From the NCBI GenBank assembly GCA_046350775.1, contig JAXLZS010000001.1, forward strand, positions 90,441-154,440: DNA of 64,000 nt, read 5' to 3'. Below, in pieces: positions 1-17,374 of this stretch. The position numbers and the translations under genes were made by a program. The DNA is from Minisyncoccota bacterium (lineage in GTDB: Bacteria; Patescibacteriota; Minisyncoccia; Phycocordibacterales; UBA5272). Within the stretch, counting starts at the first letter, position 1; each line of letters begins with the position of its first letter. Under the pieces are notes generated by a model. That model did no database searches and was not told where the DNA came from. It saw only the letters and a list, made by a program, of their open reading frames with translations.

Positions 1-1458
1 GGAGGATTTTCTGGAACCAATCAGACTTCCAGAACAATCAAGGATTCTTATGCAACAGGAAATTTAACTTTGTCTGGTGGAGCAGGAGGTAATGGTGGCT
101 CTGGTGGAAGTGGTGGAAATGGTGGAAATGGTGTATCTGCCGGTACCGGAGGTAATGGTGGTAATTCAGGAACTGTTGGCGCTGGAACAGTAGGAGGAGT
201 TAAATATGGTGGTGGATTTACTGGCTATAATTTAGGTACAATTAGCAATGTTTATTCTTTAGGTAATGTGTCAGTTATAGGATCAGATGGTGGTGCGGCT
301 GGTAATGGAGGCACAGCTGGTAATGGTGCAAGTGGAGGAATAAGCGGTGCTGGGGGAGTAGGTGGTAATGAAGGAGCTACAGCAGCAGCTGGAGCTGGCG
401 GAGCTTTACATGCTGGAGGATTGATCGGATACAATTTTACAGGAGGTATAGTCCAGTATTCTTGGACTGCTGGCAATACTGTTTTGGCTACAGGTGGATC
501 AGGCGGATCTCCTGGCACAAGAGGTAATGGTGGTAATGGTGGAGCCGGAGGAACTCTTGCTGGTGGAAATGGTGGAACTGGTGTTGCTGGTAGTGCTGGA
601 GGAGCTGGAGGAACAAGTAATGTGGGAGGTTTGATTGGTTCTAATATTACTACAGGTTCTTTAAATACTAGTTACGCATCTACGACTGTTATAGTTATAG
701 GAGGAAATGGCTCGGTTGGTGGTGTTGGAGGAAATGGAGGCTCTGGTGGTGCTGGAGGATCAAGCGGATCAGGAAATGGCGGTACCGGACAAAATGGTTT
801 GATAGGTGGTGCGGGAGGAGCTGGAGGTTTGGTTGTTGCAGGTGGTTTAGTAGGAGATAATACTGGAATAATAACAAACGCTTATTCTAGTGGGAATGTC
901 ACAGCTACAGCCGGAAGTCCTGCTGTTGGTGGTACCGGTGGAAATGGAGGAAACGGAGGAGCTGCTGGAGGTGGAACAGTTGGAGCAAATGGTAGCGGTG
1001 GTAATGGTGGAGCCGGAGGTGCTGGTGCTAGTGCTTATGTCGGTGGACTTTTAGGTAGTCATGCAACTTCTCTCGTTACAAATACCTATTCTACTGGGGT
1101 ACCTTTAGCAAGTAAGACTTCAGGTGCTAATGGTGGTAGTGGAGGATTAAAAGGTGTTGGTGGATCTGGTGGAACTAATGGTAGTACTGGAACCACAGGA
1201 GCTTCCACAGCATTACAATATGCTGGAGGTATAGTGGGTAATCCGGTCAGTGGTACATGGTCTTCTAGTTATTGGAATACCAACACTTCAGGAAAAACTG
1301 ATGGAGCTGGAAATGCTACAACTCCAAGCAACACTTCAGGAAAAACTACTAATCAGATGAAGCAACAATCAACTTTTTCTGGTTGGGATTTTACTAGTTT
1401 TCCAACTTGGAAGATTATGGAGAATACCACATATCCATATTTTAATTATCAGACAGCT

Positions 1459-4400
1459 CCTGATGCTCCAATTATCGGTACAGCTACCGCTGGAAATGGA
1501 CAAGCAACAATTACATTTACACAGCCTGCAAATATTGGCGGAGCACCTATCACAAGTTATACAGTCACTTCGAATCCTGGCGGATTTACTGCATCAGCAG
1601 GCACTTCTCCAATTACGATTACTGGACTTACAAACGGTACTACATACACATTCACTGTTACTGCAACTAACGCATACGGCACAAGTATTTCTTCTGCTAC
1701 TACAAATTCCGTAACTCCTGCCACTGTTCCTGATGCCCCAACTATTGGTTCAGTAACTGCTGGAAATGGACAAGCAACAGTCATTCACTCCTCCAGTATC
1801 AAATGGAGGATCATCAATCACATATTACACTGTCACTTCAAGTGGAGGACAAACTGCTACAGGTGGATCATCACCAATTACAGTTCTAGGATTAAACAAC
1901 GGTACCACTTACACCTTCACAGTGACAGCTACAAACGTCACAGTTGGTACCAGTACTCCATCTTCTACAAGTAATTCCGTCACTCCTGCCACTGTTCCTG
2001 ATGCTCCAACAGGAGTCACAGCTGTTCGTGGAAATGGAGAGGCTTATATATCATTTACTCCAGGTAACAACGGAGGTTCAACTATTTTGTATTACACTGT
2101 CACTTCAAGTGGAGGACAAACTGCTACAGGTGGATCATCACCAATTACAGTGACAGGTCTTTCAAATGGTTCCTCATACACATTCACTGTTACTGCAACT
2201 AATATTGTAGGTACAAGTTCTTCTTCTACAATTAGTGCCCCAATAACTCCTGCTGTTCCTGATGCTCCAACTATTGGTTCAGTAACTGCTGGAAATGGAC
2301 AAGCAACAGTCACATTCACTCCTCCAGTATCAAATGGTGGATCATCAATCACATATTACACTGTCACTTCAAGTGGAGGACAAACTGCTACAGGTGGATC
2401 ATCACCAATTACAGTTCTAGGATTAAACAACGGTACCACTTACACCTTCACAGTGACAGCTACAAATGCAGTTGGTACCAGTACTCCATCTTCTACAAGT
2501 AATTCCGTCACTCCTGCCACTGTTCCTGATGCTCCAACAGGAGTCACAGCTGTTCGTGGAAATGGAGAAGCTTATATATCATTTACTCCAGGTAACAACG
2601 GAGGTTCAACTATTTTGTATTACACTGTCACTTCAGAGTGGAGGACAAACTGCTACAGGTGGATCATCACCAATTACAGTGACAGGTCTTTCAAATGGTT
2701 CCTCATACACATTCATGACACTGCAACTAATATTGTAGGTACAAGTTCTTCTTCTACAATTAGTGCCCCAATAACTCCTGCCACTGTTCCTGATGCTCCA
2801 ACTATTGGTTCAGTAACTGCTGGAAATGGACAAGCAACAGTCACATTCACTCCTCCAGTATCAAATGGTGGATCATCAATCACATATTACACTGTCACTT
2901 TAGTGGAGGACAAACTGCTACAGGTGGATCATCACCAATTGCAGTTCTAGAGTTAAACAACGGTACCACTTGCACACTTCACAGTGACAGCTACAAATGC
3001 AGTTGGTACTTGTTACTCATCTTCTACAAGTAATTCCGTAACTCCTGCCACTGTTCCTGATGCCCCAACAGGAGTCACAGCTGTTCGTGGAAATGGAAGC
3101 TTATATATCATTTTACTCCTGGAAACAATGGAGGCTCAACTGTTTTGTATTACACTGTCACTTCAAGTGGAGGACAAACTGCTACAGGTGGATCATCACC
3201 AATTACAGTTCTAGGATTAAACAACGGTACCACTTACACCTTCACAGTGACAGCTACAAGGCCCAAGTCGGCACCAGTACTCCATCTTCTACAAGTAATT
3301 CCGTCACTCCTGCCACTGTTCCTGATGCTCCAACTATTGGTTCAGTAACTGCTGGAAATGGACAAGCAACAGTCACATTCACTCCTCCAGTATCAAATGG
3401 AGGATCATCAATCACATATTACACTGTCACTTCAAGTGGAGGACAAACTGCTACAGGTGGATCATCACCAATTACAGTTCTAGGATTAAACAACGGTACC
3501 ACTTACACCTTTACAGTGACAGCTACAAATGCAGTTGGTACCAGTACTCCATCTTCTACAAGTAATTCCATCCTCCTGCCACTGTTCCTGATGCTCCAAC
3601 TATTGGTTCAGTAACTGCTGGAAATGGACAAGCAACAGTCACATTCACTCCTCCAGTATCAAATGGTGGATCATCAATCACATATTACACTGTCACTTCA
3701 AGTGGAGGACAAACTGCTACAGGTGGATCATCACCAATTACAGTTCTAGGATTAAACAACGGTACCACTTACACCTTCACAGTGACAGCTACAAATGCAG
3801 TTGGTACCAGTACTCCATCTTCTACAAGTAATTCCGTCACTCCTGCCACTGTTCCTGATGCTCCAACAGGAGTCACAGCTGTTCGTGGAAATGGAGAAGC
3901 ATATATCATTTACTCCAGGTAACAACGGAGGTTCAACTATTTTGTATTACACTGTCACTTCAAGTGGAGGACAAACTGCTACAGGTGGATCATCACCAAT
4001 TACAGTGACAGGTCTTTCAAATGGTTCTCATACACATTCTGTTACTGCAACTAATATTGTGGGTACAAGTTCTTCTTCTACAATTAGTGCCCCAATAACT
4101 CCTGCCACTGTTCCTGATGCTCCAACTATTGGTTCAGTAACTGCTGGAAATGGACAAGCAACAGTCACATTCACTCCTCCAGTATCAAATGGTGGATCAT
4201 CAATCACATATTACACTGTCACTTCAAGTGGAGGACAAACTGCTACAGGTGGATCATCACCAATTACAGTTCTAGGATTAAACAACAGTACCACTTACAC
4301 CTTTACAGTGACAGCTACAAATGCAGTCGGCACCAGTACTCCATCTTCTACAAGTAATTCCGTCACTCCTGCCACTGTTCCTGATGCTCCAACTATTGGT

Positions 4401-7050
4401 TCAGTAACTGCTGGAAATGGACAAGCAACAGTCACATTCATACTCAGTATCAAATGGTGGATCATCAATCACATATTACACTGTCACTTCAAGTGGAGGA
4501 CAAACTGCTACAGGTGGATCATCACCAATTACAGTTCTAGGATTAAACAACGGTACCACTTACACCTTCACAGTGACAGCTACAAATGCAGTTGGTACCA
4601 GTACTCCATCTTCTACAAGTAATTCCGTCACTCCTGCCACTGTTCCTGATGCTCCAACAGGAGTCACAGCTGTTCGTGGAAATGGAGAAGCTTATATATG
4701 TTTACTCCAGGTAACAACGGAGGTTCAACTATTTTGTATTACACTGTCACTTCAAGTGGAGGACAAACTGCTGAGTGGATCATCACCAATTACAGTGACA
4801 GGTCTTTCAAATGGTTCCTCATACACATTCACTGTTACTGCAACTAATATTGTAGGTACAAGTTCTTCTTCTACAATTAGTGCCCCAATAACTCCTGCCA
4901 CTGTTCCTGATGCTCCAACTATTGGTTCAGTAACTGCTGGAAATGGACAAGCAACAGTCACATTCACTCCTCCAGTATCAAATGGTGGATCATCAATCAC
5001 ATATTACACTGTCACTTCAAGTGGAGGACAAACTGCTACAGGTGGATCATCACCAATTACAGTTCTAGGATTAAACAACGGTACCACTTACACCTTTACA
5101 GTGACAGCTACAAATGCAGTTGGTACCAGTACTCCATCTTCTACAAAGTAATTCCGTAACTCCTGCCACTGTTCCTGATGCCCCAACAGGAGTCACAGCT
5201 GTTCGTGGAAATGGAGAAGCTTATATATCATTTACTCCTGGAAACAATGGAGGCTCAACTGTTTTGTATTACACTGTCACTTCAAGTGGAGGACAAACTG
5301 CTACAGGTGGATCATCACCAATTACAGTTCTAGGATTAAACAACGGTACCACTTACACCTTCACAGTGACAGCTACAAATGCAGTCGGCACCAGTACTCC
5401 ATCTTCTACAAGTAATTCCGTCACTCCTGCCACTGTTCCTGATGCTCCAACTATTGGTTCAGTAACTGCTGGAAATGGACAAGCAACAGTCACATTCACT
5501 CCTCCAGTATCAAATGGTGGATCATCAATCACATATTACACTGTCACTTCAAGTGGAGGACAAACTGCTACAGGTGGATCATCACCAATTACAGTTCTAG
5601 GATTAAACAACGGTACCACTTACACCTTCACAGTGACAGCTACAAATGCAGTCGGCACCAGTACTCCATCTTCTACAAGTAATTCCGTAACTCCTGCCAC
5701 TGTTCCTGATGCCCCAACTATTGGTTCAGTAACTGCTGGAAATGGACAAGCAACAGTCACATTCACTCCTCCAGTATCAAATGGAGGATCATCAATCACA
5801 TATTACACTGTCACTTCAAGTGGAGGACAAACTGCTACAGGTGGATCATCACCAATTACAGTTCTAGGATTAAACAACGGTACCACTTACACCTTTACAG
5901 TGACAGCTACAAATGCAGTTGGTACCAGTACTCCATCTTCTACAAGTAATTCCGTCACTCCTGCCACTGTTCCTGATGCTCCAACAGGAGTCACAGCTGT
6001 TCGTGGAAATGGAGAAGCTTATATATCATTTACTCCAGGTAACAACGGAGGTTCAACTATTTTGTATTACACTGTCACTTCAAGTGGAGGACAAACTGCT
6101 ACAGGTGGATCATCACCAATTACAGTGACAGGTCTTTCAAATGGTTCCTCATACACATTCACTGTTACTGCAACTAATATTGTAGGTACAAGTTCTTCTT
6201 CTACAATTAGTGCCCCAATAACTCCTGCCACTGTTCCTGATGCTCCAACTATTGGTTCAGTAACTGCTGGAAATGGACAAGCAACAGTCACATTCACTCC
6301 TCCAGTATCAAATGGTGGATCATCAATCACATATTACACTGTCACTTCAAGTGGAGGACAAACTGCTACAGGTGGATCATCACCAATTACAGTTCTAGGA
6401 TTAAACAACGGTACCACTTACACCTTTACAGTGACAGCTACAAATGCAGTTGGTACCAGTACTCCATCTTCTACAAGTAATTCCGTCACTCCTGCCACTG
6501 TTCCTGATGCTCCAACTAATGTTGCTGGAACTATTGGAAATGGAAGTGTTAGTGTTTCTTGGTCAGCTCCAGCTTCAAATGGAGGATCTCCTATAATTTT
6601 GTACACTGTCACAGCTAGTCCTGGAGGACAAACTGCTACTTCAACTGCTACAAATTTGACGATGACAGGATTAAACAATGGTACCACTTACACCTTTACA
6701 GTGACAGCTACAAATATTTACGGTACCAGTGTTTCTTCTGGTTCGAGTGCGGGTCTGACTCCAGCCGATGTTCCTGGTACTCCTACAAACTTGGCTGCGG
6801 TCGTAAGAGACTCTAGTATAGATCTTTCTTGGACAGCTCCAGCTTCAAATGGAGGTTCACCTTTAATTGATTATGTTATTCAATATAAACTTACAACAGG
6901 TGGGACTTGGACAACATTTGCTGACGGTATAAGTACTGTACCTGCTGTGACGATCACAAGTTTATCAAACAACAATTCTTATGACTTTCGTGTTTATGCA
7001 AAAAATATTGTAGGAACAAGTTCTCCTTCTACTCAAGTCAGTGCCGCTCC
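1459..7050 (+). repeat. Coding tandem array with a period of ~261-270 nt. About 18 copies are near-identical and alternate between subtype A (PDAPTIGSVTAGNGQATVTFTPPVSNGG...) and subtype B (PDAPTGVTAVRGNGEAYISFTPGNNGG...). Three more divergent FN3-like copies lie at the ends.
   Basis: Identical ~50-nt strings recur at ~1738, 2267, 2798, 3331, 3598, 4117, 4387, 4909, 5449, 5707 and 6247 for type A, and at ~2006, 2541, 3071, 3859, 4660, 5185 and 5980 for type B. Each unit carries the FN3-like consensus TYTFTVTATN. Confidence 0.9.
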
Positions 7051-7489
7051 TGGTGCTCCAGCACAAGTTTTGATTCAGAGTTTCAGTAATTTGACTACAC
7101 CAAACATAGCTACTTTGGTACGTATTACAAATGAAGGTTCTGTCGCTTATGAGTACACATATACATGGTGTGTTACGAATTCTTCTACGAATACTTGTGG
7201 AGGAGGAGACGACATCTTCAGTTCTACTGCTGCAAAATTGATTCAGCCTGGAGCGAATTTTGACACAACATTGACTTCAACAGTGCCGACAGCTGGTAAT
7301 TATTTCTTCCATATAAATGTTCAATTTGGATCTGATTCTTCAACAGCTAAACAATCATTTACAGCTACAACAGTTACCACTCCAGTGACTCCACCAAGTG
7401 GGGGTGGAGGAGGTGGTGGCGGTGGAGGGGGAGGTTCTCCTTTACCGGTAGTTGATGTGCCTGCCACAAACACTTCTTGTATCGGAGCA

Positions 7490-7650
7490 GATTTCAATCA
7501 TGATGGAAAAGTAAACTCTGTAGACTTTTCAATTATGTTAGCATTTTGGAAGACAGCTTATCCATTCAAAAATGCTTGTGTGGATATAAACAAGGATAAA
7601 CAAGTAAACTCTGTAGACTTTTCAATTCTACTTTATCAATGGGGAAAAGA
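7490..7650 (+). other. Type-I dockerin module made of two 22-aa Ca-binding repeats, DFNHDGKVNSVDFSIMLAFW and DINKDKQVNSVDFSILLYQW.
   Basis: It has the canonical dockerin loop D-x-N/D-x-D-G/K-x-V-N-x-x-D followed by a helix, present twice. A 24-nt string, gtaaactctgtagacttttcaatt, is duplicated at 7511 and 7604. Confidence 0.8.
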
Positions 7651-7687
7651 TCCTGTATTATTTAAAAAAGATTAATAAACAATAATT

Positions 7688-8308
7688 ATGAATAAAAAAT
7701 ATTTATTATATATAATGTTTACATTTATTGGATTAAAATTATTTTTCTTACCACAAAATATTTTTGCGGCAGAATTAAATTTTAAAATCCTATCAGACAA
7801 AAGTTCAGATCCAGCTTCTAAAGTAGTCGAAGTACGCATAGATCCAAAAGGAAAAATGTTAAATGTTATAGATGGTGTTATATCTTTTGACGGATCAGGT
7901 TCAGACAATCTTTATGTGCAAGTTGAAAATGGAAATTCTATTCTATCTCTTTGGCCTACGCCACCAATTTACGATAAAGATAGTAAATCTATCCATTTTA
8001 TAGGTGGAATTCCAAATGGATTTGATAAAGAAGGCTTACTTTTTGTCTTAAAGATAGATCAAAAGTCCGCAGGCGATTTATCAGTTTTATTTTCAAACGG
8101 TTTTGCTTATTTAAATGACGGTAAAGGCACTCAAGAAAATATTTCTTCTAGTCCTCTTGCTATTAGTGGGAATCTTGTTAAGACTGGAAAAGTTTTTGAG
8201 ATCAATAAAAAAATTATTAACATAAAAGATGTTATAATAATTTTATCTGTTATAGTCATAGCTATTTTTACAATTTTTTATGTATATAAAAAAAATATTA
8301 AAAAATAA
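7688..8308 (+). CDS. Secreted, C-terminally TM-anchored protein carrying one cohesin-like beta-sandwich domain.
   Basis: There is an N-terminal signal peptide (MNKKYLLYIMFTFIGLKLFFLPQNIFA) and a C-terminal hydrophobic anchor (IIILSVIVIAIFTIFYVYKK). The central ~140 aa are homologous to the N-terminal domain of the next gene, e.g. SLWPTPP...IHFIGGIPNGF matches SLWVEDPA...ITFNGGLPTPG. Confidence 0.6.
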   Translation: MNKKYLLYIMFTFIGLKLFFLPQNIFAAELNFKILSDKSSDPASKVVEVRIDPKGKMLNVIDGVISFDGSGSDNLYVQVENGNSILSLWPTPPIYDKDSKSIHFIGGIPNGFDKEGLLFVLKIDQKSAGDLSVLFSNGFAYLNDGKGTQENISSSPLAISGNLVKTGKVFEINKKIINIKDVIIILSVIVIAIFTIFYVYKKNIKK

Positions 8309-9995
8309 AATATTCTTCATTAGGACAATATTATTTTTTATTTTTGTTTTTTCTTCATGTCTTTATACTGAGGCCGCGATTCTAAAAATAAATTCAAATG
8401 TTTCCACTCTTTCAGTTGGTGACACTGCTACTATAAGTGTATTTTTAAATTCTGAAGGTTTTGCTGTCAATAATGTAGAAGCAGTTTTGCAATATCCTAC
8501 CGATATGCTTGATGTCTTATCTGTCAGCAAGAGTAGTTCTATATTTTCTCTCTGGGTAGAAGACCCTGCTTTTTCAAACAATTCAGGTACTATAACATTC
8601 AATGGAGGATTACCTACTCCAGGATATAGTGGATCACAAGGATTAGTTGTGACTTTTGTTGTCAAAGCCAAAAAAGCCGGATCTGCTAATATTTCTTTTT
8701 CTAGTGCTGCCGCCAGAGCAAATGATGGTCTTGGTACAGATGTTTTAAATAGTAAAACAGGTAAAACTCTCACAATAAATGAATCCTTAAAACCAGTCGT
8801 AGAAGAGACGAAGCCTACTACTCCTACCACGACTCAGACTTCTACTTCTATACAGATAACTTCAACTTCTCATCCAGATCAAGATAGTTGGTATAAAGAT
8901 AATACGCCTACATTTAAGTGGAATATACCTTCAGGAGCTAATGCAGTTCAGACAACTATAGACAACAATACTTCTGGAGTACCACATGTCACTTATAGTC
9001 CAGCAATAGATAGTAAAACTGTAGACAAAGTAAAAGATGGAGTTTGGTATTTTAAGGTGCGTGCTCGCAAAGATGGTGTTTGGGGATCGACAAGTAAATA
9101 TATAGTCAGAGTTGATACCGTCGCTCCACAATTAAAATCTACTTCTTTTGATTACGATGATAAATCAAAAATTTTAAGTATAAATGTAGACGCTCAAGAT
9201 TCTACTTCTGGTATAGATCATTATGATGTCATAATTAATAATGTTTTAATAAAGAGTATTTCAGCAAAAGATTTTGTAAATGGAAAGTATTCTCTACCTT
9301 TCAGTAACTCAGGAAGTAATAAAGTAAAATTGGTCGTATATGATAAAGCTGGCAACAGTGTAGAATCCGATACTTCTTCATTTGAATCTACAAGTTCTAT
9401 AGCTCCAAAACTTAATGATATTCCAAGTCTAGTATCTGCTAATGAAAATCTGATAGTCAGCGGCTCTATACAAAGTGCAAATACTAATCTTTTAGTCAAA
9501 TTTAGAAAAGATGAAGGACAAGAAATAATTCTAGAAGTAAAATCAAATGCAAATGGAGATTTCTTAGTCTTATTACCTAAATTGGAGTCTGGTAATTATG
9601 AAATCTGGGCAGAATCTATTAACGGAGCTCAGTCTGAACATATAAATACAAAAGCTATATCACAAACTATAGTCACTATAGGTAGCTACAGCTTTACTTT
9701 GCTTTACTTGATTATTGTGGTTTTAGTTTTGATGATATTATCTTTCTACTTTGGACACTATCTGACCATAAAATTGAGACCTAGACGCAGACAGAGATCC
9801 AGACCTCTATCAGCAAGAAGAGATCATTCTAGGACTCTAAGTCTATTAAAGAAAAATCTTGAGAGACATTTAGAGATATTGCAAAATATTAGACATGATC
9901 GTCTTTTGACTAAAGAAGAAAGAGAGATGAAAGAAAATATAGAAGGCGGTCTCGATGAGATAGATCAAGTATTATTAAAAGGGGATAATAAATAA
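8280..9995 (+). CDS. Type-I membrane protein. It has a signal peptide, a cohesin-like domain, a Thr-rich linker, Ig-like/beta domains, a single TM helix, and an Arg-rich, acidic coiled-coil cytoplasmic tail.
   Basis: The N-terminal domain LKINSNVSTLSVGDTATISVFLNSEGFAVNNVEAVLQYPTDMLDVLSV fits the cohesin pattern V.I....GDTV.IPV.....N....L.YD...L. This is followed by TKPTTPTTTQTST, the TM segment FTLLYLIIVVLVLMILSFYF, and RPRRRQRSRPLSARRDH. Confidence 0.6.
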   Translation: MYIKKILKNKIFFIRTILFFIFVFSSCLYTEAAILKINSNVSTLSVGDTATISVFLNSEGFAVNNVEAVLQYPTDMLDVLSVSKSSSIFSLWVEDPAFSNNSGTITFNGGLPTPGYSGSQGLVVTFVVKAKKAGSANISFSSAAARANDGLGTDVLNSKTGKTLTINESLKPVVEETKPTTPTTTQTSTSIQITSTSHPDQDSWYKDNTPTFKWNIPSGANAVQTTIDNNTSGVPHVTYSPAIDSKTVDKVKDGVWYFKVRARKDGVWGSTSKYIVRVDTVAPQLKSTSFDYDDKSKILSINVDAQDSTSGIDHYDVIINNVLIKSISAKDFVNGKYSLPFSNSGSNKVKLVVYDKAGNSVESDTSSFESTSSIAPKLNDIPSLVSANENLIVSGSIQSANTNLLVKFRKDEGQEIILEVKSNANGDFLVLLPKLESGNYEIWAESINGAQSEHINTKAISQTIVTIGSYSFTLLYLIIVVLVLMILSFYFGHYLTIKLRPRRRQRSRPLSARRDHSRTLSLLKKNLERHLEILQNIRHDRLLTKEEREMKENIEGGLDEIDQVLLKGDNK

Positions 9996-10148
9996 AAATA
10001 TTTTCAAAGAAAAATAGATATCCTACGATATCTATTTTTCTTTTGCCTGTCAACAATGTCTTTTTATTTTTTGGTGTATAATATATTTATATAAAAATTT
10101 ATTTTTTAATTGATAATTTAAATCTAAATTTATTAGATATTTTATTTT

Positions 10149-10781
10149 ATGGACTTTATAGGTCATTCAATGTTGGTTTCAAGTGGATTAGGATCTTTTT
10201 GGAGCTATTTGATAATACTTTTTTTAGCTTTCTTGGATACAGTATTTGTGATCGGTACTATTTTCCCTGGTAGCCTCATGGTCATGGGTATTGGATTTTT
10301 AGCGGCCTTTTCGGTTTTAAATGTTTGGGTTTGTCTTTTCTTTGTGGTGCTTGGCGGACTATGCGGTGACGCATTGACTTATTTTTTTGGAACTCATGGC
10401 ACAAATTGGTTTAAAAATGAAAGTAAATTATTAAAGTTTACTTATCTTAAAAAAGGTCAAGATTTTTTTGAAAAGCATGGAGACAAAAGTATTGTCCTTG
10501 GCAGATTTATGGGAGTTATAAAAGCCGTCGTACCTTTTGTGGCAGGACTTGTGCGTATGGATTTTAAGAAGTTTATTTATTTAAATCTTATTTCAGGGTT
10601 TATCTGGGCTGTACTTTATTTGGGTCTCGGATTCTTTTTGGGAGTGTCTATGGATAGATTTGTCGTGCCAAAAGATTTAAAAATCTTGATAGTTGCTTTA
10701 CCTTTTGTCATCTTTTTTGTTTGGATTATATTTGAATCTAGGACAAAATTATTTAAAGCAGTCAAAAGATTTTTCCGTTAA
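10149..10781 (+). CDS. DedA / SNARE-associated (VTT-domain) membrane protein.
   Basis: Multi-TM protein with the motif IVLGRFMGVIKAVVPFVAGLVRMDFKKF. Confidence 0.7.
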   Translation: MDFIGHSMLVSSGLGSFWSYLIILFLAFLDTVFVIGTIFPGSLMVMGIGFLAAFSVLNVWVCLFFVVLGGLCGDALTYFFGTHGTNWFKNESKLLKFTYLKKGQDFFEKHGDKSIVLGRFMGVIKAVVPFVAGLVRMDFKKFIYLNLISGFIWAVLYLGLGFFLGVSMDRFVVPKDLKILIVALPFVIFFVWIIFESRTKLFKAVKRFFR

Positions 10782-10789
10782 TTTTATAA

Positions 10790-11716
10790 TTAATCTTTTA
10801 CTATCACTGTCGTACCAATATCTGCCCAATTGTATATTATTTCGGCTTCTTGTGGATTTAAATTTACACAGCCATGAGACCATTGTGTCCCAAAGCTATT
10901 GTGCCAATAGGCTCCATGTATAGCTGCTCCTTGATCTGTAAAATACATAGTCCAAGGTACTCCTGGCAGATCATAGTATTGATCAGATATACCAGGTAGA
11001 GGCCCTTGCATATATCTGCTCGGTGTCTTTTCAAATATATGAAAAGTTCCTCTTGGAGTTGGTAGATCGCTCAGTCCAGATGAGATATATGTCTCCATAA
11101 AGATATTGTCTCCATCATAAGCGTAGAGTTTTTGTTCACTTAGTTTTACTATTATTTTTTTATTAGTTGAGATTTTTGAGGCTTTGCCACTTGTTATTTT
11201 TTCTTTATAGCTTTGTATTGGTTCTAGATATTCTGATGAAATATACCAATCTTTGGCTGTTCTCTCTGGATATCTGACCCACTCTGAAAATATTATATGA
11301 TACCAATCTATCCCGTCAGAATGTATCACTTCTCCATTTGTTTCCAGTATCATGTTGTCTCTCAGATTGGCTATGGTAGGACATGAGAGACCAGGGCAAG
11401 ATCGAGCTCGCACACAAGATCCACCAAAATGTACATCGCAACTATTTATTATTTTTACGTATTCATGATTTGTAGTTTCTATTTTTACTCCATTATTTTT
11501 TGTTGTGATATCAGGGGTGGAAGATGAGACAGGATTATATGTAGTTGTAGGATTATCTATATTTAAATATTTAAAATCAGAATAGACTTCTTGATTTTTT
11601 ATTTCTTCTTTTAGTATTTTTTCTTTACTGATAGATTGAAAATATCCTGCTAAGATTAAAAGTAAAACTAGCAAAAGTGTTATGTTTATAAAAGTATAGC
11701 TGGATATTTTTCTCAT
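10790..11716 (-). CDS. L,D-transpeptidase (YkuD domain) with an N-terminal membrane anchor.
   Basis: Catalytic motif HGAYWHNSFGTQWSHGCVNL with conserved His and Cys. Confidence 0.85.
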   Translation of the reverse strand: MRKISSYTFINITLLLVLLLILAGYFQSISKEKILKEEIKNQEVYSDFKYLNIDNPTTTYNPVSSSTPDITTKNNGVKIETTNHEYVKIINSCDVHFGGSCVRARSCPGLSCPTIANLRDNMILETNGEVIHSDGIDWYHIIFSEWVRYPERTAKDWYISSEYLEPIQSYKEKITSGKASKISTNKKIIVKLSEQKLYAYDGDNIFMETYISSGLSDLPTPRGTFHIFEKTPSRYMQGPLPGISDQYYDLPGVPWTMYFTDQGAAIHGAYWHNSFGTQWSHGCVNLNPQEAEIIYNWADIGTTVIVKD

Positions 11717-11763
11717 GCTATTATTTTAGCATTTTTATTTAGCAAAAAAATATTTGTTAAATA

Positions 11764-12423
11764 TTAGTTAAATTCTAGATATTCTCCTTCTGATATCACT
11801 TCTACTTTATCGTCAACTATCTTTAGTGAAGAATTGTCATCGAGTGCATAGACTTTCTTTTGAAGAAAATCAGCTATCTTTTTTATATTTTCTTCTCTTG
11901 TTTTTAAAAAGTGAGGAGAATTAAGATGTGGTATAGAATATAGATCTACTAGATTTAATGCTTCCATATTACTAAATTCATTTTTTGAATCTAGATCATT
12001 AACAATTTTAGATATACTTTGTCCGATTTTTGGATTAGTTATTAGACTTCCAGCAGAGACGCCGACATAGACTTTGGTTTTTAGAAATTCTGGTAGAAGG
12101 GAGGCGAGGCCGGATTTATTTACCCACTCCATCAGATGATAAGTATTTCCTCCTTCAAAAAATATCACATCAGCCTCCTCGATTTGTGGTCGCCAAATAT
12201 TTTCTGGTACAGCAGAGATATCAGCGATACTGATTGATTTTAGTCCGAGCTTGTATAAATTATTCAGATCTTCAATTAACCAATCTTTGTCTCCCATTTC
12301 TACATTGCTAGCAGTTGGGATGAAGACGAGGGAAGTATCTTCTGGATTTTTTCCGACTAATTCAAAAAGAGCTTTTGCGATTGATGGGTTTGATATTCCG
12401 CTTGATGTTAAAAGTAATTTCAT
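11764..12423 (-). CDS. Peptidase S51 family (dipeptidase E-like).
   Basis: MKLLLTSSG...FFEGGNTYHLM...VYVGVSAGSLI resembles PepE/cyanophycinase. Confidence 0.6.
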   Translation of the reverse strand: MKLLLTSSGISNPSIAKALFELVGKNPEDTSLVFIPTASNVEMGDKDWLIEDLNNLYKLGLKSISIADISAVPENIWRPQIEEADVIFFEGGNTYHLMEWVNKSGLASLLPEFLKTKVYVGVSAGSLITNPKIGQSISKIVNDLDSKNEFSNMEALNLVDLYSIPHLNSPHFLKTREENIKKIADFLQKKVYALDDNSSLKIVDDKVEVISEGEYLEFN

Positions 12424-12428
12424 AATTT

Positions 12429-13019
12429 TTATAAAAATTTATTTGGAAAATTTCCAGCCTGCTCATTTACAAACCTATTTCTATCCTCAAAAGCTTTTTT
12501 GATTTCTGGCAATACTATCTTTCTTTCCCAATCTTTTTTTAATTTATTTCTATTGTCCTGCATTAGCTCCTCAATACTTTTATTATTAAATTCTTTATAA
12601 TAAATATTCCAAAAAGGACCAACCAGATGTGCTGCAGCATCAGCAGAAGAGACTATTTTGACTTCGATAGGAGCTTGATTTAGATCTATTTCCATTTTCT
12701 TTTCAAAAATGTCTAAATATTCTAAAATAGTATTAATAAAATCAATTTCAAACCCTAATTCTAAAAGTTTTTCTTTTGTTTTTTCAAACATAGAGACATC
12801 GTGTTCCTTTTCTCTGCTTATGATTTTTGCATAATCGTGTGACCAGACTAATGTAAGAACAATGTTCTTATCAGCGTCTTTATAGATTTCGCACAATTCT
12901 AAAGATATCCTTTCTACAAGATCGAGATGATATTTTACATACCATTCATGATGTAAAAAATCTGGATTTTTGCAAGATTCTATAATCTGATTTTTAAATT
13001 CTTGTATAAGTTTTTCCAT
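12429..13019 (-). CDS. HD-domain phosphohydrolase-like protein.
   Basis: H..H...HLD and SHDY motifs; assignment is weak. Confidence 0.4.
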   Translation of the reverse strand: MEKLIQEFKNQIIESCKNPDFLHHEWYVKYHLDLVERISLELCEIYKDADKNIVLTLVWSHDYAKIISREKEHDVSMFEKTKEKLLELGFEIDFINTILEYLDIFEKKMEIDLNQAPIEVKIVSSADAAAHLVGPFWNIYYKEFNNKSIEELMQDNRNKLKKDWERKIVLPEIKKAFEDRNRFVNEQAGNFPNKFL

Positions 13020-13028
13020 ATTTTTAGA

Positions 13029-13535
13029 TTATATCATTTTTAAGATTTTCTTATTTATTAAAGGCAAAAAATGATCTTTATATTTTTCTTGTAATTCTTT
13101 TAGTTGCCAATCTTTACCGGTCACAATATGTCGACAATTAGGGGATCCGCATTTACATTCCCATTTTGAAATTTTATTTTCATCATTTTCCCACATTGCA
13201 TAATCCGCTGTGATTTCTTCTCCTTTTTCAATATCTATCATCGCTTCGAGTGTGAAAGCATTTCTCATCCAAACATTTGGCTCGCAAGAATGGTTTATAA
13301 AATAGGTATTACTCTCGCCACGATCTTCAATAGAAAATAAATTCTCATCAAATTGCATTACGAGTTTTCCTTCGCTCTTTGCTTTCTCAGCTTCTTCTTT
13401 TCCAAAATAATTTCCTCCCCAGATTATTACAGTTTCTCCTTTTGGTATTTGCTCAGTTGCAAACATACCTTTTCCACGATCAAGAGTTTCTTTTATTTCA
13501 ATTTTTGGATTTATATAATCTTCTTTTGGCGGCAT
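13029..13535 (-). CDS. SET-domain protein lysine methyltransferase.
   Basis: NHSCEPN motif, Y in DY, and a post-SET CKCGSPNCRH cluster. Confidence 0.8.
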   Translation of the reverse strand: MPPKEDYINPKIEIKETLDRGKGMFATEQIPKGETVIIWGGNYFGKEEAEKAKSEGKLVMQFDENLFSIEDRGESNTYFINHSCEPNVWMRNAFTLEAMIDIEKGEEITADYAMWENDENKISKWECKCGSPNCRHIVTGKDWQLKELQEKYKDHFLPLINKKILKMI

Positions 13536-13558
13536 AATTATTTAATTATATAGATTAA

Positions 13559-14149
13559 TTATTTTATATCATTAATCAATTCTGGGAATTTTTCTTGTGT
13601 AAAATGTCCTCTGTCTTCAAAAATTCTCAATGTCGCATTAGGTAAATCTCGTTTATATTTTTCTACATCAAAAAAAGCTACAGCAGTATCGTCTTTGCTT
13701 TGATATAAGAATATCTTATCAGTATAATCACTTAATTTTTCAACAGTATTTTCTAAAGCGAAATCAGCAAGTGATTCTTTTATTACTTCAGTATCATATG
13801 GCGCAGCAACCAAATGTAAGGATTTTATTTTTTTAGGAAAAGTATTTTCTGATAAATATTTAGCTAAAAATATTCCACCAAGAGAATGTCCTACTAAAAC
13901 CACTTCTTCTGTTAATAGGGGAAATAGTTTTTCAAACCATAATTTCCATTCCGAGTAGCGTGCATTTTTAGCGTTTGGCATTTTAGGATAAATCACTTCG
14001 TATTCTGGTAATTCTGAAGCTAAAAAATCTTTCCAATCTTTTCTGTTTATTTTTTCAAGTGATAATTCACAAGATTCTAAATAAGACCAGTATTCTTCAT
14101 AATTATCAAAAGTTGATCCTCCGTGAATTAATATTAATGATGTTTTCAT
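13559..14149 (-). CDS. Alpha/beta-hydrolase, serine hydrolase (RBBP9/YdeN-like).
   Basis: ILIHGG...VLVGHSLGG nucleophile elbow. Confidence 0.6.
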   Translation of the reverse strand: MKTSLILIHGGSTFDNYEEYWSYLESCELSLEKINRKDWKDFLASELPEYEVIYPKMPNAKNARYSEWKLWFEKLFPLLTEEVVLVGHSLGGIFLAKYLSENTFPKKIKSLHLVAAPYDTEVIKESLADFALENTVEKLSDYTDKIFLYQSKDDTAVAFFDVEKYKRDLPNATLRIFEDRGHFTQEKFPELINDIK

Positions 14150-14162
14150 ATTTTAGATTATA

Positions 14163-14666
14163 TCATTTTTGTAAAAACCTAATATTGCCATTTTCTCCCA
14201 AAAAATCACTTTTGTCTTTACTGTATTCAGAATAAGGTTTACCTTGGTATTTCATTTTTAATTTATTATATTCTTCCAAAAGATTTTTATTTGATCTTAA
14301 TTCGTCTCTCACTTTATAACAATCATCGTATATGGAATCTTTAGTGGTGACTACGAGATCTATTGGTATATTATTTTTTGTGGTTTTAAAAATAGCAAAT
14401 CCTTCTTTCCAGAATTCTTTTCTTTTTTCTTTGAAATGAGATTTTAATATTTTAATTGCTTCCTCAAAATCTTTTTCTTCGACCCTTATTTGAAAATCCA
14501 AATCTAATTTTCCAACGGCTCCAGGTACAGAAGAACTACCAACATGTTCCACGTCAGAAAAAGGAAGTAATTCTTTAAATAAATTATCCAACTTGGTAGA
14601 AGTCTCTTTTGTAGATTTGATTAGTTCTTCAAAAGATAAAAAATAAACTGGTTGATCGTCCTTCAT
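14163..14666 (-). CDS. GrpB-family minimal nucleotidyltransferase.
   Basis: VEHVGSSSVPGAVGKLDLD resembles the GrpB/UPF0157 motif hIGSTsVPG...D.D. Confidence 0.5.
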   Translation of the reverse strand: MKDDQPVYFLSFEELIKSTKETSTKLDNLFKELLPFSDVEHVGSSSVPGAVGKLDLDFQIRVEEKDFEEAIKILKSHFKEKRKEFWKEGFAIFKTTKNNIPIDLVVTTKDSIYDDCYKVRDELRSNKNLLEEYNKLKMKYQGKPYSEYSKDKSDFLGENGNIRFLQK

Positions 14667-14768
14667 ATTTTTGCTGTGATCTTCGAGACCGAACAGTAAT
14701 CGTTCAAGCTCTGTAAGGCTATTTTATTTATTTCATTTTACCATAAATGAAGCACTTTGAGCATTTAA

Positions 14769-15488
14769 TTATTTTATATATTTTTTTAATTCTACAGGCA
14801 AGGACTTTTTGGTCTCATTTTTTATCCAGGCACTTACTGCTTTCTTTACTTTGTTCTCTTTTACCAATTTTAAATATTTTTTCGCTGGTAATTTCCCAAC
14901 ATATTTTTTTCCAACGAATTCATATTCTTGAATTTTATCCCATTCAAATGGTTTTTTTATTTTTATTCTCTCTATAGGTCTTACAGGAAAGAAAGAAATC
15001 CATTCTTTGTATTTATTCCACTTACCCAGTTGGAGTATTTCATATGTCATCTCAAAAAAATCAAATCCTTCAAGCACATAAATATATCCATAATGCTTAC
15101 TGCCCAGATGCAATGTCCTGCCTTTATAAATCAGATTGTGATATATACGGCCTGATATATTTTTACGGACTTTTAAATAATCTTTGGAGTAAACTTTGCA
15201 AAAATCATCTGTTGGCTTTGCTCTAGCAAAAACAACAGGACTTCCAAATTCATACCCTCCTTCACCATAAGTATTTTTATTTTTTTGAGGATCAAGAATA
15301 GAAAATCTTTTTGGAGATGCATGAAATAAATATTTCTGCTTTGCTGGTTTTAAAGACAAAATACGAATATCTGTGTCAATTGGAACTATATTTTTCTCGG
15401 TAGTGTCTTTATTTTTACCCCAAATAACTTTATACCCATCTTTTGTTTTTAAAACAAATTCTAGTGATTTATATTTTCCCATACTCAT
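14769..15488 (-). CDS. Hypothetical protein.
   Basis: Long ORF, co-directional with the upstream run; no recognisable domain. Confidence 0.4.
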   Translation of the reverse strand: MSMGKYKSLEFVLKTKDGYKVIWGKNKDTTEKNIVPIDTDIRILSLKPAKQKYLFHASPKRFSILDPQKNKNTYGEGGYEFGSPVVFARAKPTDDFCKVYSKDYLKVRKNISGRIYHNLIYKGRTLHLGSKHYGYIYVLEGFDFFEMTYEILQLGKWNKYKEWISFFPVRPIERIKIKKPFEWDKIQEYEFVGKKYVGKLPAKKYLKLVKENKVKKAVSAWIKNETKKSLPVELKKYIK

Positions 15489-15576
15489 ATAATTATATCA
15501 CACGTTCAGTGCATTTCGCTCTATGCAGAACTCACGAAATATAGCCCTGACGCATCTTGAGCGACGCTCTTGTTTG

Positions 15577-15647
15577 CTGCCAGAACTGGAATCGAACCAA
15601 TATTCACAGCTTCAAAGGCTGCTGTCCTACCATTAGACGATCTGGCA
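15577..15647 (-). tRNA. tRNA-Gln (TTG).
   Basis: Cloverleaf with a 7-bp acceptor stem TGCCAGA/TCTGGCA, anticodon loop CTTTGAA and T-loop TTCGATT. Confidence 0.85.
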
Positions 15648-15714
15648 ATATTTTTGTCTAAATAGTATATCAGAAAAACCTTAAAAAATAAAGAGACATT
15701 TTATCTTATTTTGA

Positions 15715-16455
15715 TTAGATATTTCCTTTAATCCAATTTTTTCTTTCCGCTTCCTCCATTTTTTCTATCGCATATCTCAGTGTGGTTCTTGGGATTTTAT
15801 GATAATTCTTTTTTAAAAATTTTCTGATTATTTCTTGATCGACTCTTTTGTAGACTTCTCTCAGCATCCAGCCATTGGCTTTATGTATGAGATCATGCTC
15901 GTGATGCAATAGTTTGTCTACCATTTCTAGTGTATCTTTAAAATTCTTTTCTTTCATTATAAAGTAGAGCGTCGCTATGATGGAGACTCTATTTTCCCAG
16001 AGATTTTTACTATCTGATAATTTTTGCAGTATTTCTTTTCTTTCTTTTTTATTTTTTGTATCCGAGAGATAGGCGCCGACTATCTTTGGAGCAGATGTGT
16101 CCACCAGATCCCAATTGTTGATATATTTTTTGATATTTTTTAGATAAATCTCAAAAATCTCTCTTCTTATTTTTTCATCTTTGGCTTTTTCAAATTTGTT
16201 GACCATTATGAGTAGGGCGAGGAGTCTCTCATCATGAAATTCTGATTTTAAAAGTTTTTCCGTATCTTTTAAATTTATATCTCCATATACTCTGACCAAT
16301 TTTCTAGTTTGGGGGACGGTGAGACCGAGAAATTTATCTCCTTCCCCATATTCTCCTTTTCCAGTTTTAAAAAATCTGAGTGCTAACTCAGCTCGCTGCA
16401 TACTGGCAATCTTTAAAATATGACCGTGTATTTCTTTTAATTTGTCTTGATTCAT
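15715..16455 (-). CDS. DNA alkylation repair protein (AlkD/AlkC HEAT-like repeat family).
   Basis: Similarity to the AlkD family, e.g. RAELALRFFKTGKGEYGEGDKFLG...W.L.D. Confidence 0.65.
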   Translation of the reverse strand: MNQDKLKEIHGHILKIASMQRAELALRFFKTGKGEYGEGDKFLGLTVPQTRKLVRVYGDINLKDTEKLLKSEFHDERLLALLIMVNKFEKAKDEKIRREIFEIYLKNIKKYINNWDLVDTSAPKIVGAYLSDTKNKKERKEILQKLSDSKNLWENRVSIIATLYFIMKEKNFKDTLEMVDKLLHHEHDLIHKANGWMLREVYKRVDQEIIRKFLKKNYHKIPRTTLRYAIEKMEEAERKNWIKGNI

Positions 16456-16543
16456 AAAATTTAATATTTAAAAGCAAAATTTTGCATAGATATTTTGTAG
16501 TGTTATAATTATAACATTATAAACATTTTCTAAATATATAAAT

Positions 16544-17356: not shown

Positions 17357-17374
17357 AATAATAAAAATTAAAAT

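Follow-up and report, generated by a model that had tools for sequence, protein, structure and literature searches.

The closest known class to the array protein described here is that of the Periscope Proteins and fibrillar adhesins, and variable-length adhesins of this kind are already known. The Periscope Proteins include SasG, Rib/alpha C, Sgo_0707 SHIRT, and CdrA (Whelan et al. 2021, PMC8201768; review PMC9704523). In a cultivated patescibacterium, envelope proteins with dockerin and FN3 domains are essential (PMC10633639). The locus examined here lies at the left end of a 64,000-nucleotide stretch of DNA, the window, and all of its features are on the forward strand. Positions 1-7675 probably represent the C-terminal part (2,561 codons or more) of one giant surface-fibre gene of an ultrasmall bacterium of Candidatus Paceibacterota (CPR/Patescibacteria), whose inner repeats have been homogenised, whose frame breaks are assembly errors, and whose product is anchored by a dockerin. 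The N-terminus of the protein, and hence any signal peptide, is outside the window. The architecture runs from glycine-rich N-terminal repeats through a stalk of 21 FN3 domains to a small beta domain, a poly-Gly segment, and a type I dockerin.

The FN3 array and its units

The N-terminal part of the giant ORF (1-1458) extends beyond the left end of the window and contains Gly-rich repeats of about 70 amino acids, in which GGxGG runs are followed by the pattern GG[LI][IV]G.N.G.I.N.Y..G.V. Frame 1 is open over 1-1971. No Pfam or NCBIfam family matched the Gly-rich repeats at E<=10, the one exception in this region being the fn3 match at D1, the first array unit. GC3 in the N-terminal part is 0.16, which is typical of the genome, and the GC3 of the array also equals that of the genome.

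The array that follows consists of 21 FN3-sized units. TRF reports a period-267 tandem array at 1705-6544 (18.2 copies, score 6168), and units anchored on the PDAP motif span 1459-7048 in the order D1 A B A B A C A A B A A B A C A A B A D2 D3. The inner 18 units belong to three subtypes, A (11 units, 267 nt), B (five units, 264 nt), and C (two units). An earlier note on this DNA had described about 21 copies, 18 of them nearly identical as DNA and of two subtypes alternating A-B-A-B with occasional A-A. Its count stands and its unit coordinates are correct to within 2 nt, but there are three subtypes, and the actual order includes two C units, at 3056 and 5174. Near-identity holds within subtypes (94-100% in the raw sequence) and not between A and B, which are about 71% identical as DNA and 70% as protein.

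The lesion-free inner units are A2 (2258-2524), A5 (3587-3853), A9 (5438-5704), A10 (5705-5971), and A11 (6236-6502), each of 267 nt, together with C2 (5174-5437) and B5 (5972-6235), each of 264 nt. A11 is identical in the independent contigs L001 (whole unit), L004 (from 6372), and L005 (from 6464), and the tail of B5 from 6065 is identical in L001. Pfam fn3 matches are strong in the intact tail of the array (7 domains, E 2e-62). The best PDB matches of an AF2 model of A9-A10-B5 (pLDDT 96.7, pTM 0.78) are the tandem FnIII domains of titin, fibronectin, and contactins. Pro-rich linkers (TPATVPDAPT) connect the FN3 domains to one another.

All three edge units diverge from A, as the earlier note had reported. 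D1 (1459-1728, 270 nt; Pfam fn3 E 6.6e-8) is about 74% identical to A at the DNA level, and in most orthologues its best match is unit 1 or 2. At the 3' edge, D2 (6503-6772, 270 nt) is about 69% identical to A and D3 (6773-7048, 276 nt), the last and most divergent unit, about 50%. D2 is the positional orthologue of the penultimate unit in L009, L010, L018, L019, and L021, and D3 is that of the last array unit in the orthologues. These last two units correspond by position across species while the inner units do not, in line with the divergence expected at array edges.

Recombination and homogenisation of the inner units

Subtype C is a recombinant of A and B. Its two units are 99% identical to each other, 85% to A, and 82% to B, and they combine a B-like head with a 62-nt core and an A-identical tail, the core being identical in all subtypes. 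Within subtypes the real differences are a few shared SNPs, all of them synonymous, and the 11 A units all have identical translations once repaired; every SNP shared among A units is synonymous, suggesting that the array protein is under selection. Four gametes are present in seven pairs of SNP columns.

The comparison with orthologous loci that the earlier note had called for covers eight related CPR genomes with intact orthologues. Their arrays have 13, 14, 16, 17, or 27 FN3 units, compared with 21 here, and they are much less homogeneous (best-partner DNA identity mostly 70-90%), although most of these are short-read MAGs, which would collapse identical repeats, so that the contrast is possibly exaggerated. 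The synonymous-only shared SNPs, the four gametes, the recombinant origin of C, and the lower homogeneity of the orthologues support the claim of recent amplification or ongoing concerted evolution of the inner units. Unequal recombination and gene conversion between units probably keep the inner 18 alike at the DNA level, and have probably produced the three subtypes, one being the A/B recombinant. Unit number would be expected to change in steps of 264-267 nt, with the frame kept.

Frame breaks and copy number

The coding frame changes 16 times over 1781-5145, a feature that went unremarked in the earlier note. This lesion zone comprises 16 frameshifting indels, of which 11 are deletions (17 nt in total) and 5 are insertions (6 nt in total), along with 2 indels of 3 nt that keep the frame, 3 isolated private substitutions, and several garbled patches of more than one base. 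Every lesion is private to one unit. In A1 (1729-1996, 268 nt) 2 nt are missing at 1781 and 3 nt are added at 1938-1940. B1 (1997-2257, 261 nt) lacks 3 nt in frame at 2252 and has a synonymous substitution of its own at 2041, and B2 (2525-2788, 264 nt) has a 1-nt insertion at 2636 and a 1-nt deletion at 2715 with two adjacent substitutions. The most damaged unit is A3 (2789-3055, 267 nt), which is 94-95% identical to other A units; it has a 1-nt deletion at 2901, a 1-nt insertion at 2976, and garbled stretches at 2941-2972 and 3010-3017. The chimeric unit C1 (3056-3320, 265 nt) has a 2-nt deletion near 3096, a 1-nt insertion near 3113, and a 2-nt insertion with a garbled patch near 3260-3267. 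A4 (3321-3586, 266 nt) lacks 1 nt at 3572 and has a substitution at 3570, while B3 (3854-4112, 259 nt) lacks 2 nt at 3900, 1 nt at 4026, and 2 nt at 4039 and has a substitution at 4061. A6 (4113-4379, 267 nt) has a private G>A change at 4287, which replaces Gly with Ser, and A7 (4380-4644, 265 nt) has a 2-nt deletion with a garbled patch at 4441-4444. B4 (4645-4905, 261 nt) has deletions of 1 nt at 4699 and 2 nt at 4772, each with adjacent substitutions, and the last lesion is an additional A at 5145 in A8 (4906-5173, 268 nt).

Mechanically called ORFs run over 70-1974, 1766-2950, 3060-3614, 3795-4622, 4417-5151, and 5114-7675. Repair to the subtype consensus (+11 nt) gives one ORF of 2,561 codons, with its stop codon at 7673-7675. 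The lesion zone is asymmetric: its 5' boundary is 52 nt inside the repeats, but it ends 1.36 kb before their 3' edge. The 1,357 nt of array that follow it are equally repetitive and lesion-free (Poisson P ~4e-5). This asymmetry is not predicted by a simple failure of polishing inside repeats and requires a gap-fill or mixed-data explanation.

It is quite probable that the lesions are consensus errors of long reads or gap filling, not decay, because the orthologues are intact and elsewhere the window is clean, agreeing exactly with independent short-read contigs. The array ORF is uninterrupted in seven short-read orthologues (L009, L010, and L015-L019), where it exceeds 3,500 amino acids and continues beyond the flank that was fetched; in L021, a long-read MAG, it has 1,775 amino acids in a single frame. 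The other 56 kb of the window is 91% open frame with full-length Pfam matches; short-read contig L002 has 0 mismatches to the window over 6,387 nt, and L001 equals it over 6065-16989 with no indels. The errors would stem from a stretch of the assembly that could be spanned only by noisy long reads or gap filling, an origin read from the spectrum and distribution of the lesions, as 1781-5932 is present in one assembly. It is improbable that the frameshifts are real and that the gene was recently inactivated in this lineage, the array decaying rather than functioning. Such an explanation takes the 16 frame changes of the deposited sequence at face value, and since the rest of the assembly is accurate, general noise cannot simply be assumed. 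The NCBI collection has no protein matching any of the ORF fragments, which is consistent with a pseudogene call; because NCBI holds no protein for the array gene, we take it that the annotators treated it as a pseudogene. However, a spectrum in which 18 indel events and multi-base scrambles accompany 3 isolated substitutions does not fit natural decay, and no lesion is shared between units despite evident gene conversion, while all shared variants are synonymous. In addition, lesions are absent from the 1.7 kb of unique N-terminal sequence, from the final 1.36 kb of repeats, and from the C-terminal 1.2 kb. Eight genomes have intact orthologues, and the two partner cohesin genes are unbroken, with the same sequence in many samples.

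The copy number and unit order could themselves be artefacts of a collapsed, expanded, or mis-threaded repeat, but this seems unlikely. The SNP haplotypes of the units are varied and non-periodic, like distinct real copies and unlike a self-looped read, both subtype C copies carry the same private head variants, and 21 units is within the range of the orthologues. On the other side, every independent assembly fails at the array: the 11 or more short-read contigs, from 10 or more samples, all end at or inside it. L003 is misjoined to unrelated DNA, L001 has a unit with an A head and a B tail at the window's B position, the array of L020 contains an N-gap, and the lesion zone shows that low-quality data lie behind the stretch. 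An artefactual copy number would be compatible with a functional gene. The assembly artefact that the earlier note had envisaged applies in part, to the sequence quality and not necessarily to the copy number. That note had also likened the array to a contingency locus, with a unit number that differs among cells or strains and thereby adjusts the length of the fibre, which we consider a tentative possibility. Exact repeats of up to 372 nt, signs of inter-unit recombination, units that are multiples of 3 nt, and the range of 13-27 units in related species favour such variation, and Periscope Proteins pair high repeat identity with high repeat-number variation (PMC8201768). The hybrid unit of L001 at 5972-6064 is a weak hint at the strain level, from a strain that differs by 25 SNPs elsewhere, but it is within the final 130 nt of a short-read contig and may be a graph artefact formed via the 62-nt core. 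The array is crossed by this assembly alone, and the variation in copy number is seen between species only. Strictly, the label of contingency locus is wrong: the array has neither a simple-sequence tract nor an on/off switch, and since the length of the units is a multiple of 3, their gain or loss alters protein length, not frame.

Proposed anchoring and relation to known systems

Downstream of the array there is a conserved beta-rich domain (7049-7398), which is 44-81% identical in 20 CPR-type loci, has no Pfam match, and served as the handle for the orthologue search. A poly-Gly linker (about 7399-7434) lies 3' of it. The type I dockerin (7490-7630) matches Pfam Dockerin_1 over residues 793-839 of ORF 5114-7675 (E 2e-8; 34.8 bits, cutoff 22.9) and has two Ca-binding loops, DFNHDGKVNSVD and DINKDKQVNSVD. 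The next gene, U0469_00505 (7688-8308), encodes a 206-amino-acid protein with a signal peptide, a beta-sandwich (residues 28-161), a linker, and a C-terminal TM helix. Sequence HMMs gave no cohesin match for this protein; the top 49 Foldseek matches of its AF2 model (pLDDT 84) to the PDB are all cohesin modules (E down to 2.4e-6, target-normalised TM-score up to 0.73), and it is predicted to have a cohesin fold. The 571-amino-acid protein encoded at 8280-9995, named 'cohesin domain-containing protein' by NCBI, combines a signal peptide and Ig-like domains (Big_13 / DUF7743) with a TM helix near its C-terminus and a basic tail, and its N-terminal domain is paralogous to the 206-amino-acid cohesin. 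Both genes are conserved 3' of the array gene at every orthologous locus, forming a three-gene module.

The dockerin and the adjoining genes for membrane proteins with cohesin folds suggest a mode of anchoring for the fibre. The dockerin would plug into the membrane-anchored cohesin-fold proteins, and we infer that its partners are the products of the next two genes. At about 3.5 nm per FN3 domain the stalk would be roughly 70-75 nm long, and it would hold the N-terminal region away from the cell surface, with attachment to a host or substrate as a plausible role. We infer this function of the stalk, and likewise its variability in length.

The locus shares features with several known systems. 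Like contingency loci, it offers repeat-driven, potentially high-frequency heritable change of a surface structure. However, its units are 264-267 nt rather than 1-8 nt, homologous recombination is expected rather than slipped-strand mispairing, and the outcome is a change of length rather than an on/off frame switch. Cohesin-dockerin anchoring was compared using cellulosomal type I/II pairs and the non-cellulosomal cohesins of Archaeoglobus fulgidus (2xdh) and Clostridium perfringens (2jh2/2vo8). As in those systems, there is a C-terminal type I dockerin, the partner is a nine-to-ten-strand beta-sandwich, and the dockerin gene adjoins the cohesin genes. In contrast to them, the locus has no glycoside hydrolases or scaffoldin, and its cohesins are single, anchored by a TM helix, and missed by sequence HMMs, with binding that is predicted. 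Fibrillar adhesins (Monzon et al. 2021, PMC8286594) are similar in having a long multidomain chain, a repeated stalk, a distinct distal region, and a predicted cell-surface location. They differ in that no adhesive domain was recognised here by Pfam or NCBIfam, and adhesion is a suggestion.

Overall, Periscope Proteins, rather than contingency loci, are the fitting concept. The stalk described here differs from theirs in being built of FN3 domains in three interleaved subtypes, with A-B neighbours that are 70% identical and 100% identity between neighbours in three A-A pairs only. The host is an uncultivated CPR bacterium, the apparent anchor is a C-terminal dockerin with membrane cohesins instead of an LPXTG/sortase or outer-membrane system, and the repeat-number variation, which defines the class at the strain level, is known here between species only. 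In common with the Periscope Proteins, this surface protein is a single chain in which domains that fold independently, each of more than 50 residues, are repeated in a long tandem array. Their DNA identity is very high, the linkers between them are short and contain Pro, and the termini of the fold are at opposite ends. In both cases inter-repeat recombination is proposed to alter the length of the stalk and hence the projection of the distal region.

Units and subtypes of the FN3 array

The tandem FN3 array is real and well delimited, it has been homogenised by recombination, and it lies in a giant, probably surface-attached CPR protein. Tandem Repeats Finder (TRF) reports a single tandem array at 1705-6544 with a period of 267, 18.2 copies and a score of 6168. 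Unit borders were set by anchoring on the recurring CCTGATGC (P-D-A-P) motif. This gives 21 units, which start at 1459, 1729, 1997, 2258, 2525, 2789, 3056, 3321, 3587, 3854, 4113, 4380, 4645, 4906, 5174, 5438, 5705, 5972, 6236, 6503, and 6773; the last of them ends at 7048. The earlier note had described an array of about 21 copies at 1459-7050, and this is confirmed, with its coordinates right to within 2 nt.

The 18 inner units fall into three subtypes. Subtype A (267 nt) has eleven members, at 1729, 2258, 2789, 3321, 3587, 4113, 4380, 4906, 5438, 5705, and 6236; subtype B (264 nt) has five, at 1997, 2525, 3854, 4645, and 5972; and subtype C (264 nt) has two, at 3056 and 5174. With the edge units D1 (first) and D2 and D3 (last two), the array reads D1 A B A B A C A A B A A B A C A A B A D2 D3. 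The A units share 98-100% identity when lesions private to single units are set aside, and the B units are 98-100% identical to one another in DNA, whereas A and B share only about 71% in DNA and 70% in protein. The 18 inner units were previously described as near-identical copies of two alternating subtypes; near-identity holds within each subtype, but there are three subtypes, and A and B are clearly distinct. Protein identity between neighbouring domains is 70% for A-B, 83% for A-C, and 100% for the three A-A pairs. The edge units are divergent, as had been noted, with identities to A of about 74% (D1), 69% (D2), and 50% (D3).

The variation among inner units supports recent amplification or ongoing gene conversion, in line with the earlier proposal of recent amplification or concerted evolution. 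Subtype C is recombinant: a B-like head leads into a 62-nt core that is identical in A, B, and C, and an A-identical tail follows. Shared variants of the A units occupy six SNP columns, each variant being found in two to five units and synonymous in every case, and all four gametes are present for seven pairs of columns. The longest exact repeat in the array is 372 nt. A simple higher-order repeat made by recent block duplication, for instance of A C A A B, which occurs twice, is rejected because the SNP haplotypes of the matching A units differ. Intact units are all multiples of 3 nt, so that gain or loss of units keeps the frame.

The non-coding frames of the FN3 units (1729-6502) are open for about 236 nt, and on L001, a JGI short-read contig of the same organism, gene calling produced spurious genes on the minus strand of the array (contig positions 138-401 and 489-749). 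ORF lists and automated calls are therefore misleading in arrays of this kind.

Comparison with orthologous loci, which the earlier note had proposed as a check, suggests that the edges of the array are stable while its interior turns over. Eight orthologues have 13, 14, 14, 14, 16, 16, 17, and 27 units. The last two units of the arrays in other species are the positional orthologues of D2 and D3. In most orthologues the best match to D1 is unit 1 or 2, and no partner at a fixed position is found for A, B, or C. The orthologues have less homogenised interiors, their units mostly sharing 70-90% DNA identity with their best partner; the array described here has the most homogenised interior of them all, in a comparison in which short-read MAGs would collapse identical repeats. 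Local homogenisation occurs in relatives too, as shown by the related MAG L015 (CAZFAS010000001.1), in which the non-adjacent units 4 and 8 are 100% identical in DNA and the best-partner identities of the remaining units range over 56-91%. Within the population, copy-number polymorphism is plausible, the variation seen here being between species only (13-27 units).

Frame breaks and their origin

The reading frame of the giant gene is broken repeatedly in the deposited sequence. Mechanical ORFs split the gene into 70-1974, 1766-2950, 3060-3614, 3795-4622, 4417-5151, and 5114-7675. Alignment of units within subtypes was used to separate shared variants from private lesions, each of which is found in one unit only. 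Sixteen are frameshifting indels, at 1781 (-2), 2636 (+1), 2715 (-1), 2901 (-1), 2976 (+1), ~3096 (-2), ~3113 (+1), ~3267 (+2), 3572 (-1), 3900 (-2), 4026 (-1), 4039 (-2), 4443 (-2), 4699 (-1), 4772 (-2), and 5145 (+1). There are also two in-frame 3-nt indels (1938 and 2252), three isolated private substitutions (2041, 4061, and 4287), and multi-base scrambles at 2941-3017, ~3260, and 4441-4444. The lesion-specific k-mer CAACAGTCATTCACTCC and its consensus counterpart CAACAGTCACATTCACTCC are an example. All lesions lie within 1781-5145. The following 1,357 nt (5146-6502) are equally repetitive and have none, against about 10 expected at an equal rate (Poisson P of about 4e-5). Returning the private lesions to the subtype consensus adds a net 11 nt and joins the stretch between window position 1 and the stop at 7675 into one open frame of 2,561 codons, in which all eleven A units translate identically. 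Programmed frameshifting or phase variation as the source of the 16 frame changes is rejected, since the sites lie in neither slippery nor simple-sequence contexts and several of the lesions scramble more than one base.

Judging from the assembled sequences, the lesions are probably an artefact of assembly. Their spectrum consists of 18 indel events and the scrambles versus three isolated substitutions, and such an excess of indels is the opposite of natural bacterial decay. A consensus that noisy long reads or gap filling support only weakly typically has such an indel-dominated spectrum. No lesion is common to several units even though the units exchange sequence, as the four gametes and subtype C show, and this also points to an artefact. 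The rival explanation is that the lesions are real and the gene is a true, very recent pseudogene. The 16 frameshifts in the deposited sequence are what this would produce, and the asymmetric placement of the lesion zone within the array counts against an artefact. In addition, no protein from the giant gene was found in the public protein collection when the broken ORF fragments and ORF 5114-7675 were looked up by exact match, which suggests that the depositor's annotation treats the gene as a pseudogene. However, the natural spectrum expected under relaxed selection is not seen, the lesions are limited to one 3.4-kb zone, and the shared SNPs, which are the real variation, are purely synonymous, indicating purifying selection on the gene after the units spread. 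A pseudogene is therefore unlikely.

The state of the surrounding sequence and of the orthologues also counts for an assembly artefact. The rest of the window is free of such lesions: it has 8 tRNAs, 91% open-frame coverage, and full-length matches to TypA, LepA, LeuRS, TopA, SMC, RNase R, Def, Fmt, and others. It agrees exactly with independent short-read contigs of the same organism, L002 having no mismatches over 6,387 nt and L001 being the same as the window from 6065 to 16989 without indels, so the assembly is accurate wherever short reads could support it. The frame is intact in the orthologues; in the seven short-read loci, among them the closed Falkowbacteria chromosome CP066698, it is open for more than 3,500 aa and runs off the fetched flank, and its open length in the long-read MAG L021 is 1,775 aa. 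One possibility is that the garbled consensus at 1781-5145 is itself a mixture of cells with different numbers of units.

The number and order of units in 1781-5932 rest on one assembly, as no other assembly crosses the array. Look-ups of two downstream genes with 10-kb flanks found at least 11 JGI/Logan short-read contigs, from at least 10 samples, that carry the downstream genes. All of them end at window 5933-6686, and within the homogenised part 6065-6502 alone has independent confirmation. In the contig L003, unrelated higher-GC DNA (1-847) is joined directly to window 6572 inside unit D2, which is a misassembly at the repeat. The first 132 nt of L001 (window 5933-6064) have a unit with an A head and a B tail in place of the fifth B unit, the reciprocal of the B-head/A-tail subtype C; this hybrid is either a genuine variant of the strain or an artefact of the de Bruijn graph at the 62-nt core that the units share. 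A related locus (L020) has an N-gap inside its array. At its other end, beyond 16989, L001 and the window differ at 25 SNPs, without indels, in the 1.2 kb that follow (16990-18152, a peptidase M3 gene). So sharp a boundary after 10.9 kb of identity suggests a contig chimeric between strains, or a tract recombined between strains that co-occur.

Exact scans of metagenome contigs gave no matches to a 35-mer from D1, in the unique 5' flank and placed for crossing of the 1781 lesion, or to an invariant 42-mer of the A-unit head, and the scanned collection evidently lacks this organism's array. A protein search with the repaired 5' entry of the array (the unique N-terminal stretch, D1, A, and B) was swamped by generic FN3 proteins and found no independent copy, the best match being 75% identical.

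Architecture of the giant gene and its neighbours

The giant gene encodes an FN3 stalk between a glycine-rich region and a C-terminal dockerin. Pfam fn3 (PF00041) matches ORF 5114-7675 with seven domains (E 2.2e-62, 207.7 bits versus a cutoff of 25), and it matches unit D1 alone with E 6.6e-8. An AlphaFold (AF2) model of three clean units, A-A-B (5438-6235), has three sandwiches with pLDDT 96.7 and pTM 0.78, and its best Foldseek matches in the PDB are the tandem FnIII domains of titin, contactin(s), and fibronectin (E to 2.6e-16). The model resembles extended tandem FnIII structures, so the array is predicted to form an elongated rod of individually folding repeats. Proline-rich linkers of 10 residues, read as TPATVPDAPT, separate the units. 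FN3 domains add about 3.5 nm each to the length of a chain, and the 21 domains would give a stalk estimated at 70-75 nm.

On the N-terminal side, 1-1458 (+ strand) encodes about seven repeats of about 70 aa, each with a glycine-rich run (GGxGGxGG...) and, after it, a motif resembling 'GG[LI][IV]G.N.G.I.N.Y..G.V', and TRF finds 9- and 27-nt GGN repeats at 73-133. No Pfam or NCBIfam model matches this region at E<=10. The repeats look like the GLUG motif by eye, and they were not assigned to it as no family matched in either collection. The gene starts upstream of the window, so its N-terminus and any signal peptide lie outside. On the C-terminal side are a conserved beta-rich domain (7049-~7398, + strand), a poly-Gly linker, and a type I dockerin (7490-7630, + strand; Pfam Dockerin_1 PF00404, E 2e-8, 34.8 bits versus a cutoff of 22.9). 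The dockerin has two canonical D-x-N-x-D-x-x-V-N-x-x-D calcium-binding loops, DFNHDGKVNSVD and DINKDKQVNSVD.

The composition of the gene is unusual, yet its codon usage is native. GC is 43-46% in the giant gene and about 30% in the window. The high value comes from codon positions 1 and 2 and reflects the abundance of Gly, Thr, Ala, and Pro in the protein. Horizontal transfer as its source is rejected, since the GC3 of 0.16-0.20 matches that found elsewhere in the genome. GC within the window is lowest at 33621-36675 (24% at 34-36 kb). This stretch contains a 686-aa TTG-start ORF with only weak helicase-C/Cas3-like C-terminal matches, followed by a 450-nt stretch without an ORF (35694-36141).

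The two genes that follow on the + strand overlap by 29 nt, and both encode a signal peptide, a cohesin fold, and a C-terminal TM helix. The first (7688-8308) encodes a 206-aa beta-sandwich protein. Its AF2 model (pLDDT 84) has cohesin modules as all of its top 49 Foldseek PDB matches, with E to 2.4e-6 and target-normalised TM-scores of 0.6-0.73. The second (8280-9995) encodes a 571-aa protein that has an N-terminal domain paralogous to the 206-aa protein, followed by Ig-like domains, and NCBI names it 'cohesin domain-containing protein'. Neither the 206-aa protein (7688-8305) nor the N-terminus of the 571-aa protein (8280-9992) has a Pfam, NCBIfam, or PDB-sequence match at E<=10; the cohesin label of the 206-aa protein thus rests on its beta-sandwich jelly-roll fold and not on a sequence profile.

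The three-gene order is kept downstream of every orthologue retrieved, and the module recurs in many CPR genomes. The C-terminal dockerin adjoins genes for membrane-anchored cohesin-fold proteins, and this adjacency and the conserved module are circumstantial grounds for proposing that the dockerin docks onto the adjacent membrane cohesins. The FN3 stalk would then project the glycine-rich region away from the dockerin-cohesin anchor.

Comparison with known systems

The attachment of ultrasmall CPR bacteria to hosts is little understood, and this locus gives a concrete architecture: a dockerin-bearing giant FN3 fibre with two membrane cohesins encoded next to it. In Southlakia, a cultivated patescibacterium and the single tractable species, envelope proteins with dockerin and FN3 domains were essential for epibiotic growth and were left uncharacterised (PMC10633639). 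Beyond the earlier note, the analysis adds the third, recombinant subtype, the 16 frame breaks with their likely technical origin, and the conserved dockerin/membrane-cohesin module. According to a preprint on giant genes, repeats routinely break up such genes in metagenomes (10.1101/2023.11.21.568195). Arrays such as this one break short-read assemblies, and long-read MAGs may carry frameshifts, with the result that a probably functional gene is annotated as a pseudogene. Surveys of CPR surface proteomes therefore likely miss such genes.

The locus differs from two familiar systems. A contingency locus, to which the earlier note had likened the array, needs a slippage-prone tract of simple-sequence repeats of 1-8 nt each, and a change in these switches expression on or off through the frame or the promoter spacing. 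Here the units are 264-267 nt, no such tract is present, the lesions lie outside sequence of that kind, and no on/off frame switch is found, so the likeness does not hold in the strict sense. Cellulosomes also use dockerin-cohesin pairs, but this locus has no glycoside hydrolases and is non-cellulosomal.

The best fit for the giant gene is the class of Periscope Proteins, single-chain surface proteins with a rod built from tandem domains of high identity, the number of which is altered by homologous recombination (PMC8201768; PMC9704523). Like them, it encodes a single chain with repeats longer than 50 residues and of high DNA identity, and its domains are foldable and lie in extended tandem with short linkers, although its array consists of three interleaved subtypes with A and B only 71% identical. 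The encoded protein may also be attached to the cell surface, as the C-terminal dockerin beside membrane-anchored cohesin-fold proteins suggests. Their defining feature is strain-level variation in repeat number, whereas the variation seen here (13-27 units) is between species. Described periscope proteins have sortase or outer-membrane anchors, and the anchor predicted here is a dockerin-cohesin pair. It is conceivable, though on balance doubtful, that all of this describes a patescibacterial 'periscope' fibre held by a dockerin on dedicated membrane-anchored cohesins encoded next door rather than by a sortase or outer-membrane system, as a module conserved across Paceibacterota- and Falkowbacteria-type genomes. 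The length of its stalk would be reset by recombination among the three interleaved subtypes, tuning the reach of the glycine-rich tip in an epibiotic lifestyle. A stalk homogenised at the DNA level in this lineage would extend the Periscope Protein idea past cultured pathogens.
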